From the sequence record PV565008.1: a stretch of 64,000 bases of DNA; one strand, written 5' to 3'. Origin of the DNA: Pseudomonas phage vB_PaePA10145phi1_MKR2. The notes beneath the pieces are model-generated. The model did no database searches and was not told where the DNA came from. It saw nothing but the letters and a program-made list of their open reading frames with translations. Of the stretch, positions 15,006-62,190 are shown piece by piece. The position numbers and the translations under genes are program-made. Each line of letters begins with the position of its first letter. Position 1 is the stretch's first letter.

Positions 15006-15024
15006 TTTGAGATTTATATTACTA
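15006..15024 (+). promoter_or_regulatory. Conserved phage promoter element (type A): TTTGAGATTTATATTACTA
   Basis: One of at least 10 copies of the TTTGARATCTATATTACA-like motif. Lies 44 nt upstream of ATG 15068 and directly after a terminator. Confidence 0.6.
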
Positions 15025-15067
15025 ATACGCAATTAGGAAAATAACTATCTAGTAAAGAGGAATCATA

Positions 15068-15562
15068 ATGAACGTTGTAATCTTCACTGCCCGACCTATT
15101 GGTTATAAAGTTCCTGGTCCTAACTCCGCTGTAAATAAGTTTGAACTACATACAGCTAATGCACCTAGTGTATATAGTTCTTCACCAGGATTACCAATTA
15201 CCACTCAAGAAAGTAGTTGTATCTATACACTCACTTCGAATCATGAGCTAGTCGCTGGCATCACCGATAATGATAACTCCCTCATGGTTTTTAGACTAGT
15301 ACTTGCGTATAATAATGATACAGCTAACTATCTAATTAGTACCCAGGTTATTGATAGTAGCGCTGAACTAAAAGGAGTGGAAATCATTAGTGAACTCAGT
15401 TTCAGTGTAATTGATACTGGTGCTCATGCGATTCGTCGAGTGAATTCGATCGGTGTATGTGAGGCTGTTGCCGCTCGATGGTCGCCAGTTGCAATTGTAG
15501 CTGATACTAGTGGTGAAGACTTTGGCGATGTATGTACCTCATATATCAAATCGAGTAACTAG
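15068..15562 (+). CDS. Hypothetical protein (164 aa)
   Basis: RBS AAGAGGAA; preceded by promoter motif. Confidence 0.7.
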   Translation: MNVVIFTARPIGYKVPGPNSAVNKFELHTANAPSVYSSSPGLPITTQESSCIYTLTSNHELVAGITDNDNSLMVFRLVLAYNNDTANYLISTQVIDSSAELKGVEIISELSFSVIDTGAHAIRRVNSIGVCEAVAARWSPVAIVADTSGEDFGDVCTSYIKSSN

Positions 15563-15563
15563 C

Positions 15564-15806
15564 ATGGTAGATAAAGACAAAACAATGGTAGATTTGGTTA
15601 AGTCAGCACATGAGCTGATTTCACATCTTGACACACTAAATAAAGTAGCAGCTACCATTAATCTAATTGGTATGCCAGATGCTTTAAAAGAAGTAGTTAA
15701 ACTCCCCGATGTAAAATGTGTTGTATATAAACGACCATTAACTGACAATCTAATTAAGATTGTCTTTAATGATGGTAGTTGCTTTGTAATGAAAGATGTA
15801 AATTAA
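15564..15806 (+). CDS. Hypothetical protein (80 aa)
   Basis: In-frame ATG 15564 immediately after the upstream stop (TAGCATGG). The track's start at 15510 lies inside the upstream gene. Confidence 0.5.
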   Translation: MVDKDKTMVDLVKSAHELISHLDTLNKVAATINLIGMPDALKEVVKLPDVKCVVYKRPLTDNLIKIVFNDGSCFVMKDVN

Positions 15807-15836
15807 ACCACCACCCTAAATAGAGAGAGTACTAAA

Positions 15837-16241
15837 ATGTCCATCGAAACCACCAAGAAGTTTATCGAAACTCACAACCTAAATGAAAAAGTAAGCATGT
15901 CCGATGCCGGGGTATTCGAAATCCCGGATGGCCTATTTGAAGAAGTTGTTCTACAACCGGCAGGCGTGACCGCCGAGCAGTATGCTCAGGTACATGAAGG
16001 TGCAGGGCAACTGGCAGCAGCTGTAAGTTATGTATTTGCTGAAAAAGCTGCACCGTACATGAAAGAAAATGAAAACATTGCTGAACTGGGTTATTCCTAT
16101 AATGCAGGTGGTGCAACTGTTTCTGGTATTATCGATCGTAAAGGCGAGCTTGTTACGGTGGTAGATACCAAATATAAGAGCAGCGCTATGAATGATGTTG
16201 TTGAAAGTGTAGCCAGCTTCTTTGAAGATGTCAATAGCTAA
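15837..16241 (+). CDS. Hypothetical protein (134 aa), GC-rich island
   Basis: RBS AGAGAG. Local GC looks close to 50% by eye, against about 37% for the surroundings. Confidence 0.65.
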   Translation: MSIETTKKFIETHNLNEKVSMSDAGVFEIPDGLFEEVVLQPAGVTAEQYAQVHEGAGQLAAAVSYVFAEKAAPYMKENENIAELGYSYNAGGATVSGIIDRKGELVTVVDTKYKSSAMNDVVESVASFFEDVNS

Positions 16242-16271
16242 TATATACTAGCTATGTCAATATAATAAGAT

Positions 16272-16300
16272 CAGTGGGTAATGTACCCACTGGTCATTTT
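16272..16300 (+). terminator. Hairpin CAGTGGGTA-atg-TACCCACTG + TCATTTT
   Basis: 9-bp stem then a T-run. Confidence 0.6.
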
Positions 16301-16358
16301 ATATTAAAAAGTTTAATGGTTAAATAATACATTTTAATAATTTAAGGAATTAGGTATC

Positions 16359-16691
16359 ATGGCGGATCAGAATTTATTTAAAGAAGTTTATGGTGATAAT
16401 AAAAAATCACATTCTAACGATATCAAATCTAATCTAGTTATTGTAATTGTACAAACTGTTCGACAAAAAGCCATTTCTCAAAAAGTATTGATTGACGATG
16501 TTTTCACTAAACTAGGTATCTCTGATGAACTTAGTGAAAATATTAAAATGTGTAATTTACCAGCTCTAAGCATTGATGCATTAGTTGACGTTCTATATAG
16601 CTTAGGTTATAGGGCTTCATTAAAATTATCGCAACAAGATTTAAAAGATAACGTTGAAGCAGTAATTGAATTTAAGATGAAGGATCAGTAA
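16359..16691 (+). CDS. Hypothetical protein (110 aa)
   Basis: RBS AAGGAA; start/stop ATGA overlap with tmk-like gene. Confidence 0.65.
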   Translation: MADQNLFKEVYGDNKKSHSNDIKSNLVIVIVQTVRQKAISQKVLIDDVFTKLGISDELSENIKMCNLPALSIDALVDVLYSLGYRASLKLSQQDLKDNVEAVIEFKMKDQ

Positions 16692-60360: not shown

Positions 60361-60563
60361 AAATAGAGCCTAATCAGTTAGGTTATGTATTTACAAAGAT
60401 CGGTTGGGAAATATGTGTTACTATTGGCATACGACATATATGTGCTAAAACCTATTATACAGTGTATTCACTTAATGATAAATGCATTTATTACATTGAG
60501 CATTCAGCGCAATTTACTAAACGCATAAAACCAAACTATATACAAAGGTTTCATGTTCTATGA
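60333..60563 (+). CDS. Hypothetical Cys-containing protein (76 aa)
   Basis: ORF overlaps both neighbours; start uncertain. Confidence 0.45.
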   Translation: MVNFDKRCLEIEPNQLGYVFTKIGWEICVTIGIRHICAKTYYTVYSLNDKCIYYIEHSAQFTKRIKPNYIQRFHVL

Positions 60564-61246
60564 TCAATACAACCGATAAAACTATAGTTGGTATAGGATT
60601 TGAAACAAAGGTTTCAGATTCACCGATTGAACAACCTGTAAAGAAAACTAAGACTCCTAAGATAAATAAACAAAAAGAATGGGAGAAAGTAGATGATCCG
60701 AGAGAATATACAAAAGAGGAACAAACTTCTCTCTTTGTAAATTGGCTTCAAAGCACACGTAATTACTGGCATAAACAGTATACCGATACTCAAAATACAG
60801 ATAAGGCACTATCTATCAGAGATATGCTTGATGGATTTATATATAGCATCGCAGCTGGCCTAGATGGCAATGATCCAAATATACCCGGATTCAAACTTAT
60901 ACCTAATGTTACTCAAGAGGATATTGACTACCTAATAAGTATTGGTGAGAATTATTGGCCAGTAAACCCAGTTGAAAATTTAAAAGATAATATCCGTGCA
61001 AAGTGTGATGCAGTTGATATTTCTGGTAATCTACGTTATCAAGTTTCTAAGACATTTACGGAACCTTTCAAAGGACCACATGCACTATTGAACCATTTCC
61101 TTAGTTTAGCAGGTGAGAAACCTGTTAAGTATTACTCGGGTAATTTTACGCAAGAGCAACTTGCTATGTTAGTAGAAAAAGCTAAAGAAAAAGCGGAAAA
61201 GATACAATCACAAATAGCTGATGATATCAGTCGAATAATGCGTTAA
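60560..61246 (+). CDS. Hypothetical protein (228 aa); shares a motif with the ORF at 61291
   Basis: ATGA overlap. Motif AGLDGNDPNIPGFKLIPNVTQEDIDYLISIGENYWP. Confidence 0.65.
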   Translation: MINTTDKTIVGIGFETKVSDSPIEQPVKKTKTPKINKQKEWEKVDDPREYTKEEQTSLFVNWLQSTRNYWHKQYTDTQNTDKALSIRDMLDGFIYSIAAGLDGNDPNIPGFKLIPNVTQEDIDYLISIGENYWPVNPVENLKDNIRAKCDAVDISGNLRYQVSKTFTEPFKGPHALLNHFLSLAGEKPVKYYSGNFTQEQLAMLVEKAKEKAEKIQSQIADDISRIMR

Positions 61247-61290
61247 TGAACTAATAAATTTATAAGCTACTGATAACAAGGTATGTAATT

Positions 61291-61665
61291 ATGATCTATT
61301 TTGAAGGCGATGGTAATGTTAAACCTGTAACACAGGAACAAGTTAAAGAACTATTTATTAGTAGTGTTGTCAATATGCGTGATAATGCTATCAATAACTC
61401 TAAACTTGATCAATTTACAGAGCCAGCTGATCGGGACAGGGCTGTAGCAGATAGTGTCATTACAGGCATGCTAGATATACTAGATGGCAATAATGACGAT
61501 TGCCCAGCGTTTCATTTAATTCCAGCAGTTGGTGAGGAAGAATATTTAGCGGCTGTAGAAGCAGGTGCTGATTATATCCCTTATGATGATGGTAGTGATA
61601 ATTATCAACCATTAGATTTAGCTGGTGAACTACGAGATTATTTTATCTTTGTTAATAGGGGTTAA
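61291..61665 (+). CDS. Hypothetical acidic protein (124 aa), paralogue of the ORF at 60560
   Basis: Motif LDILDGNNDDCPAFHLIPAVGEEEYLAAVEAGADYIP parallels the one in the 60560 ORF; RBS AAGGTA. Confidence 0.65.
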   Translation: MIYFEGDGNVKPVTQEQVKELFISSVVNMRDNAINNSKLDQFTEPADRDRAVADSVITGMLDILDGNNDDCPAFHLIPAVGEEEYLAAVEAGADYIPYDDGSDNYQPLDLAGELRDYFIFVNRG

Positions 61666-61667
61666 TA

Positions 61668-62102
61668 ATGGCTGATATAGTAATTGCACTAATCCTGTCA
61701 GCAATTATTGTTTATCTAATTAATATTTTTAAACACCCAAAAATAATTTATGCCAATAGTGTAAATGATAATGTCTTCATTGTTACTGGTTGCTCTTATA
61801 TATCTGAAAATAATGAAGATGGTACATTAACAACTTTTTCACCTAAATTAAATAATAGGTTAATAATTGATTTAACTAAAGGTCAACCCAATAAAGACTT
61901 TTATATTTCAGTATTAGATAACACACTTAAATTCCATCACACTGTTGATGAAATCATCACAGCTAATAAATGGGAAGCTTTATTTAAAATTAGCATAACC
62001 AAAGAGGATGTGTGTATCTCAGGAATGTCTCTTAAAAATAAACACATTAAATGTAATTTACACTGGGTTATAGTACCAGGTAAAATGGCGAATAAATTGT
62101 AA
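61668..62102 (+). CDS. Hypothetical membrane-anchored protein (144 aa)
   Basis: N-terminal TM segment IVIALILSAIIVYLINIF. Confidence 0.65.
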   Translation: MADIVIALILSAIIVYLINIFKHPKIIYANSVNDNVFIVTGCSYISENNEDGTLTTFSPKLNNRLIIDLTKGQPNKDFYISVLDNTLKFHHTVDEIITANKWEALFKISITKEDVCISGMSLKNKHIKCNLHWVIVPGKMANKL

Positions 62103-62115
62103 TAGTTATTATATT

Positions 62116-62157
62116 GCCCTCCCATTGCGGGAGGGCTTATATTTTATTTTTTTGTAT
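62116..62157 (+). terminator. GCCCTCCC-attgc-GGGAGGGC + long T-rich tail; same hairpin sequence as at 23930
   Basis: 8-bp stem then TTATATTTTATTTTTTT. Confidence 0.8.
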
Positions 62158-62166
62158 TTAAAGCAT

Positions 62167-62190
62167 TTTAAACAGTATATTACAAATGTG
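62167..62190 (+). promoter_or_regulatory. Conserved phage promoter element (type B): TTTAAACAGTATATTACAAATGTG
   Basis: 37 nt upstream of ATG 62227; upstream TTTTTTTGTATTTAAAGCATT block. Confidence 0.6.

Follow-up and report, generated by a model that had tools for sequence, protein, structure and literature searches.

We wanted to establish what the repeated elements are that precede ten genes in a 64,000-nt stretch of DNA from Pseudomonas phage vB_PaePA10145phi1_MKR2 (record PV565008.1). This whole stretch is called the window below. A preliminary description of it had proposed at least ten copies of a conserved promoter element in two subclasses, each just downstream of a terminator, and had likened them to the early promoters of phage phiKZ. 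That likeness is supported by the identity of the genome, by matrix matches in phiKZ and by published transcriptome maps. We conclude that the phage is a jumbo phage of the phiKZ type (Phikzvirus) and that the ten elements are very probably its early-class promoters, which are attributed to the virion RNA polymerase (vRNAP). The units of early promoter and intrinsic terminator are the published phiKZ set and are already known.

The window belongs to a phiKZ-type genome

Three parts of the window were compared by megablast with a database of 50,697 phage records. Only phiKZ-type Pseudomonas jumbo phages matched, at 95-100% identity, and window 52200-54200 was 100% identical to phage PA7. Taken as a whole, the window shows 96-100% identity to phiKZ/PA7. 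Alignment with the phiKZ reference genome (NC_004629) showed that the order of the window is collinear with phiKZ, in the following blocks:

window 1248-3593, phiKZ 184000-186345
window 3593-15497, phiKZ 187788-199699
window 15511-51629, phiKZ 199773-235886
window 51645-64000, phiKZ 236176-248531

The window covers the vRNAP genes gp178 and gp180 and then gp181 to about gp263. Relative to phiKZ, about 60 bp are absent within the gp185 orthologue (window 15497-15511) and about 275 bp in the gp239 region (window 51629-51645). A scan of the whole window against Rfam at the gathering threshold gave zero matches.

The ten sites form one sequence family

All ten proposed sites were found in the window. 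The proposal of a conserved core was borne out in part: the family is real, and the literal 11-mer TCTATATTACA is present only three times in the window. The 8-mer TATATTAC has 12 copies against a mean of 7.07 expected, which is barely over chance, and eight of these copies are family members. Since the count of the 8-mer is near chance, we used a 32-nt weight matrix instead of the literal motif. The matrix was derived from the ten window sites, and both strands of the 64 kb were scanned with it. The ten sites scored 26.6-39.2 (14.9-36.3 when each was left out of the matrix), and the sole other position above 8 on either strand was 22134 on the - strand (15.3). Maxima in 20 shuffled sequences were 5.4-19.2. 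The + strand copies of TATATTAC outside the family, at 22092 and 42229, scored -9.7 and -14.7, and neither of the - strand copies, at 28306 and 58878, exceeded 8. Two members carry variant cores.

The probable early promoters are given below with their matrix scores; the position of a core is that of its first T.

14991..15030, + strand: type A, core TATATTAC at 15015, upstream of the gp185 orthologue, score 26.6
28785..28824, + strand: type A, core at 28809, upstream of the gp204 orthologue, score 27.9
36502..36541, + strand: type B, variant core TATATCAC at 36526, upstream of the gp216 orthologue, score 31.1
37568..37607, + strand: type A, variant core TACATTAT at 37592, upstream of the gp218.1 orthologue, score 32.9
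44311..44350, + strand: type A, core at 44335, upstream of the gp230.2 orthologue, score 39.2 (the highest)
52300..52339, + strand: type B, core at 52324, upstream of the gp241 orthologue, score 34.0
52732..52771, + strand: type A, core at 52756, upstream of the gp242 orthologue, score 35.1
55803..55842, + strand: type B, core at 55827, upstream of the gp246.1 orthologue, score 31.9
59467..59506, + strand: type A, core at 59491, upstream of the gp254 orthologue, score 37.5
62152..62191, + strand: type B, core at 62176, upstream of the gp260 orthologue, score 33.6

All ten sites thus lie on the + strand. In each case the distance from core to start codon is 41-54 nt, with Shine-Dalgarno-like sequences between the two. 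The distance to the start codon had been put at 27-44 nt; measured from the end of TATATTACA it is 32-45 nt. The predicted 5' untranslated regions (UTRs) of the ten sites are 26-40 nt long, and those of phiKZ are mostly 31-40 nt (Wicke 2020, PMC8244752).

We also scanned IMG/VR with TTAAACAGTATATTAC. The scan returned 36 contigs with one match each and no multi-copy phiKZ-like contig, and we treated these matches as chance.

Mapped transcription starts at orthologous phiKZ sites

A motif search over the complete genome had been suggested as a check. Run on phiKZ with the same matrix, it gave 31 good sites and two weak ones, all on the + strand. The 31 sites agree with the published number of 28-32 early promoters: Ceyssens et al. 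(2014), as cited in later papers, give 28, with an AT-rich consensus, and Wicke et al. (2020, PMC8244752) give 32 by differential RNA sequencing. ONT-cappable-seq yielded 18 (Putzeys et al. 2024, PMC10914365).

Coordinates of transcription start sites (TSSs) and transcription termination sites (TTSs) were taken from the supplement of Putzeys 2024, which reports ONT-cappable-seq on phiKZ, and were applied to the window sites by orthology. Mapping of starts relative to the core had likewise been suggested, and mapped starts are available for four of the phiKZ orthologues. These primary 5' ends, P099, P109, P122 and P125, are labelled as early promoters in Table S3 of Putzeys 2024. Counted from the first T of the core, TSSs P099, P109 and P122 lie at +15 and P125 at +14. 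Further, 11 motif-bearing phiKZ early TSSs outside the window also lie at core+14/15. P099 is at 199232, with the orthologous core at 199217, and the start predicted for promoter 15015 is at about 15029-15030. The starts predicted for promoters 36526, 55827 and 62176 are 36541, 55842 and 62190, with the phiKZ TSSs at 220796 (P109), 240373 (P122) and 246721 (P125), respectively. Promoters 28809, 37592, 44335, 52756 and 59491 are identical to phiKZ 213064, 221848, 228592, 237287 and 244022, respectively, and the phiKZ orthologue of promoter 52324 is at 236855.

At the gp185 promoter (window 15023-15030, phiKZ 199225-199232) the core and the upstream blocks are kept, and the initiation region reads TAATACGC in the window and TAGTGTGT in phiKZ. 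The window version has lost the start-site TG, which occurs at 25 of the 31 phiKZ sites. We attempted an analysis of selection between the window and phiKZ, and it had no power because most modules are 100% identical.

One published early promoter was kept out of our set. The orthologue of P121 (window about 54142-54191) is called an early promoter by Putzeys 2024, yet its best matrix score is -0.6 and it has a TATG end like that of a late promoter. Because of this poor fit to the family and the late-promoter-like end we excluded it, and its published early class may be wrong.

Terminators upstream of the sites

The proposal that each element lies downstream of a terminator held for nine of the ten sites, which have a strong hairpin. 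It did not hold for promoter 36526, where the hairpin has a free energy (dG) of only -4.3 kcal/mol. The nine hairpins have dG values from -13.7 to -24.2 kcal/mol, and from their ends to the core there are 20-28 nt in type A and 35-39 nt in type B. Six of them were called on the + strand by the terminator scanner, and eight fit the pattern CCYCCC-loop-GGGRGG followed by TTAT. They are as follows (dG in kcal/mol):

14967..14984, + strand: intrinsic terminator hairpin GCCTCCCTTCGGGGAGGC then TTTAT, found by the terminator scan; dG -15.9; phiKZ TTS T088 at 199193
28754..28780, + strand: hairpin TAAAGGAGCCC-ACCAG-GGGCTCCTTTA, ending 28 nt before the core; dG -18.2; the nearest phiKZ TTS, T095 (213001), belongs to a separate small stem and precedes the core by 63 nt
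37545..37566, + strand: intrinsic terminator hairpin AGCCCTCCCTTCGGGGAGGGCT; dG -19.0; phiKZ TTS T101 at 221825, classed as intrinsic
44286..44307, + strand: hairpin AGGAGAGCTATTTAGCTCTCCT then TTATTGC, called by the scanner on the - strand; dG -14.1; no TTS listed in phiKZ
52266..52283, + strand: terminator hairpin ACCTCCCTTCGGGGAGGT then TTTAT, called by the scanner on both strands; dG -13.7
52703..52735, + strand: terminator hairpin with the core GGCCCTCCCTTCGGGGAGGGCT; dG -24.2
55768..55787, + strand: intrinsic terminator ACCCTCCCTTCGGGGAGGGT then TTTATTTAT, found by the scan; dG -15.7; phiKZ TTS T110 at 240325
59444..59463, + strand: intrinsic terminator CCCTCTCCCAAAGGAGAGGG then CTTTT, found by the scan; dG -14.3; phiKZ TTS T112 at 243999
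62116..62136, + strand: terminator hairpin GCCCTCCCATTGCGGGAGGGC then TTATATTTT, found by the scan; dG -16.9

Mapped phiKZ 3' ends therefore coincide with four of the nine orthologous hairpins, those upstream of promoters 15015, 37592, 55827 and 59491. The phiKZ TTS table lists none for the remaining five.

Several GC hairpins were called terminator-like on both strands (29841-29862, 43644-43663, 49021-49038, 52266-52283 and 63677-63692). At 29841-29862, phiKZ 3' ends have been mapped on both strands (T096 and T097). These hairpins look like bidirectional terminators.

Assignment to the phiKZ early promoters

The mapped phiKZ 5' ends, the 3' ends at the hairpins and the motif counts agree with each other, and therefore we identify the elements with the known early promoter and terminator units of phiKZ. 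Several observations weigh against this assignment. Six of the ten sites (28809, 37592, 44335, 52324, 52756 and 59491) have no 5' end in the ONT-cappable-seq TSS table of Putzeys. A start-site TG is present in 25 of the 31 phiKZ sites, and three of the six (28809, 37592 and 59491) also lack it at core+13/14, in both genomes. Since these three have neither a listed 5' end nor the TG, they may be weak or silent. We infer that the six sites would be active. The mapped 5' and 3' ends all come from phiKZ and not from the present genome, in which the gp185 promoter has a different start-site sequence. Further, our literature search found no in-vitro transcription by purified vRNAP from phiKZ early promoters.

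Two subclasses of sites

The division into two subclasses was confirmed on the larger phiKZ set, where the 31 sites split into 18 of type A and 13 of type B. The clustering was done with the core excluded and gave a silhouette of 0.30; in 500 column shuffles it never rose above 0.15 (0/500 reached the observed value). The types are told apart by positions -4..-2 from the core, which read GAT in type A and ACA in type B. The layout of type A is TTTGAGATC-TATATTAC, and that of type B is TTTAAACAG-TATATTAC-AAATGTGA, with the conserved AAATGTGA at the start. Mapped phiKZ starts lie at the same offset in both classes (nine of type A, six of type B), so both initiate in vivo.

Short-query BLAST matched both kinds in PhiPA3, PS119XW, BRkr, 201phi2-1, Psa21 and others. 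In PhiPA3 a B-type promoter follows the gp104 orthologue, and in 201phi2-1 an A-type promoter follows the gp52 orthologue, in each case the same as in phiKZ. The split is found in three genera, in two cases at orthologous loci. Our search of the accessible literature found no published description of the two classes; published work shows one logo.

It is conceivable that the subclasses are functionally distinct types of early promoter rather than drift within one class. We rate this idea as tentative and its probability as low, since shared descent alone can yield such clusters. If it were true, types A and B could differ in timing (immediate versus delayed early), in strength, or in the use of an extra regulator at the type B dyad described below.

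In phiKZ, type A promoters (cores 45568, 57984, 63063 and 120657) stand ahead of, among others, the nuclear-shell gene gp54 and operons for non-virion RNA polymerase (nvRNAP), namely gp68, gp70.1-74 and gp121-123. Type B promoters (2161-4516, 106875 and 108063) stand ahead of mostly small genes of unknown function. We also observed that a dyad spans the -10 element to the start site in type B (window 36527-36544, 62177-62193, 55828-55843 and 52325-52340). It is perfect at the gp216 site (ATATCACA-AA-TGTGATAT), and the type B consensus TATTACA-AA-TGTGATA pairs at 6/7 positions. The dyad may have arisen by chance from two elements that are each constrained, or a dimeric regulator may bind there.

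Alternative explanations

The elements could instead be host sigma-70 promoters, or double as such, with TTGCAY or TTGTAT as the -35 element, an 18-nt spacer and TATATT as the -10 element. Such a hexamer exactly 18 nt upstream of the core had been ascribed to most copies; we found it at six of the ten window sites, and the remaining four do not have it. TATATT matches TATAAT at 5/6 positions, six of the ten sites have a TTG that precedes the core by exactly 24 nt, and TAAACA-17-TATAAT with an upstream TG occurs just downstream of the gp216 site. However, TTGCAC, TTGCAT and TTGTAT match TTGACA at only 3/6 positions, and the sigma-70 scanner, with its threshold of at least 4/6 matches per hexamer, calls none of these pairs. 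Sigma-70-like matches in the window were not enriched over shuffles (72 vs 93, 85 vs 99, 53 vs 45). Among the 31 phiKZ early promoters, TTG occupies the -35-like position in only 8, and 30 have at most three matches to TTGACA. The TTG itself arises where the T-tail of the terminator meets the conserved GYAYT block, and the whole presumed spacer is conserved. Transcription from sigma-70 promoters usually starts 6-7 nt past the -10 hexamer, whereas the mapped starts lie 8-9 nt past it. In the literature, phiKZ infection does not depend on the host RNA polymerase, and early transcription takes place in a vesicle that holds the vRNAP. Given this independence and the weak -35 data, a role of sigma-70, including the doubling that had been suggested, is highly improbable and also unnecessary.

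Recent duplication of a cassette had been offered as another reason for the conserved spacer. On this account the repeats are terminator-promoter cassettes of about 80 bp that multiplied through duplication or gene conversion and reshuffle the early genes, in the way proposed for the promoter-early/stem-loop cassettes of T4-type phages, and the spacer is conserved through shared descent. When 400-bp windows centred on the cores were aligned locally in pairs, near-identical sub-families did emerge. The modules of 37592 and 52756 share about 59 nt, those of 52324, 55827 and 62176 share about 75-80 nt, and those of 44335 and 59491 share 33 nt; in phiKZ, 70339 and 246707 agree at every position for 50 nt or more. 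This part of the suggestion stands, but the similarity never passes about -58..+23 around the core (hairpin to start site) and never enters the flanking genes. Because it ends at the edges of the functional blocks, we rejected the idea that the repeats stem from segmental duplication. Other genera (PhiPA3 and 201phi2-1) have the same blocks conserved, in two cases at orthologous loci, which argues for long-term selection over recent spread. The two larger gaps between the window and phiKZ that lie near modules (15497-15511 and 51629-51645) are not bounded by modules. The mapped 5' ends contradict the cassette account as the sole explanation, and cassettes as such are compatible with promoter function. 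We regard spreading cassettes as quite unlikely to explain the repeats. The pattern of sub-families could result from selection that acts on a long recognition sequence, from a unit of about 80 bp being copied now and then, or from both.

Proposed mechanism and the vRNAP genes

If the ten elements are early promoters of the phiKZ type, each would span about 40 bp and comprise four conserved blocks. Counted from the transcription start, rYAYTnAAA would form an upstream block at about -37..-29, and a T-rich block would lie at about -23..-16 (TTTrAGATC in type A, ending in GATC; TTTAAACAG in type B, ending in ACAG). The core TATATTAC would occupy -15/-14..-8/-7, and the start site would usually be TG. 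Transcription would begin 14-15 nt past the first T of the core and yield a 5' UTR of 26-40 nt; a Shine-Dalgarno sequence would follow, and after it the gene that opens an early operon. At nine of the ten promoters, a GC hairpin with TTAT would end the preceding unit. With terminators upstream, the + strand early region would thus be cut into insulated terminator-promoter units.

The multisubunit vRNAP (gp178, gp180, gp80 and gp149) would enter the cell with the injected DNA and read the early promoters. Infection by phiKZ is insensitive to rifampicin, and the early transcripts are made without host RNA polymerase and without new protein synthesis. The vRNAP is packaged at 7-30 molecules per virion, which is similar to the number of early promoters. 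It co-localises with the incoming DNA, in the vesicle where early transcription occurs, and is later excluded from the phage nucleus. Direct recognition of early promoters by the vRNAP has been inferred in the field because early transcripts are independent of rifampicin and translation, and because the vRNAP is injected and co-localises with the DNA.

Two of the vRNAP genes are in the window:

1..3405, - strand: gene of a vRNAP subunit (gp178 orthologue), running past the left end of the window; window 1248-3593 is 99.96% identical to phiKZ 184000-186345 in PHIKZ178
3408..5060, - strand: gene of a vRNAP beta'-like subunit (gp180 orthologue, intron-less); open reading frame of 550 aa with GADFDGD, mapping to PHIKZ180

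The annotation of PHIKZ180 names it a head protein and a subunit of RNA polymerase. The products of gp178 and gp180 are presumed to be part of the trans-acting enzyme.

At about 3593, inside the open reading frame 3408-5060 (- strand), the window does not have a 1.44-kb segment of phiKZ (186346-187788) that bears the HNH gene PHIKZ179. A group I intron lies in this phiKZ segment (Rfam RF00028, 92 bits, E 7e-24) and splits the catalytic GADFDGD motif of gp180; the window gp180 is the intron-less 550-aa allele. Comparison of the window with phiKZ puts the intron ends at 187788 and 186346 (- strand); a U precedes the 5' splice site, and the intron ends in G. These ends are exactly equal to the orphan TSS P096 (187788, - strand) and the orphan TTS T086 (186346, - strand) of Putzeys 2024. 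This coincidence suggests that excised intron RNA of phiKZ was captured in the published data. Contrary to such a reading, Putzeys 2024 (PMC10914365) reported no evidence of splicing.

In summary, these results amount to the re-discovery of a well-mapped element. Their value is that of a positive control, as the promoters and their terminators were recognised from raw sequence without tools. In the literature covered we found no reconstitution of how a sigma-less vRNAP reads a 40-bp duplex promoter. The A/B split and the start-site TG are concrete variants for comparison as soon as in-vitro assays of the vRNAP exist. Jumbo phage engineering could also use the modules as practical parts, and a phiKZ consensus early promoter already serves as an engineering part.

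Comparison with known systems

Compared with the early promoters of phiKZ, seven of the ten modules show no difference over -70..+60, two others have 1-6 changed positions, and the gp185 module diverges most. The AT-rich motif, the extended -10-like core, the T-rich block upstream of -19, the bias towards the + strand and the distance to the start site are all shared. There is essentially no difference between the two sets. The genome of the window is a PA7-like variant in which the gp185 promoter is altered at its start site.

The window hairpins share with the conserved intrinsic terminators of phiKZ the CCYCCC-loop-GGGRGG stem with TTAT, and four have mapped phiKZ 3' ends. They differ in that the hairpin at 44286 (AGGAGAGC...GCTCTCCT) has an off-consensus stem and that promoter 36526 has no terminator. 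In phiKZ, 61 terminators share the motif BCCYCCCCHWWDGGGRRGGBYTTATKYYGT (Putzeys et al. 2024, PMC10914365).

Bacterial sigma-70 promoters are similar in the -10-like TATATT hexamer and in the AT-rich upstream region. In contrast to them, the phiKZ-type elements have a poor -35 element (at most 3/6), a conserved stretch in place of the spacer, and a start 8-9 nt past the hexamer.

The promoter-early/stem-loop (PeSL) cassettes of T4-type phages, for which a role in recombination has reportedly been documented, are said to be alike in being short intergenic repeats that combine a stem-loop with an early promoter and flank small early genes. As a difference, PeSL promoters are reportedly read by the host sigma-70 polymerase.

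The early promoters of 201phi2-1 (Serwervirus) and PhiPA3 (Miltoncavirus) share the TATATTAC core with conserved -10, -20 and -30 regions. Both phages hold A-like (GAGATT/AAATC and the core) and B-like (AAACAC/AAAGAG, the core and GTGA) versions. The flanking details in these two phages differ from those of phiKZ; according to the 201phi2-1 paper, positions -2, -9 and -31 are more conserved in 201phi2-1.

The early vRNAP promoter of the Bacillus jumbo phage AR9 is AAATATATATTAT-(6N)-G (PMC5312081). It resembles the phiKZ type in being an AT-rich element of about 10-13 nt near -10, with a fixed distance to a G start, and in being vRNAP-dependent and translation-independent. Unlike the phiKZ type, it has another sequence, it belongs to a uracil-containing genome, and no upstream -20/-30 blocks have been reported for it.

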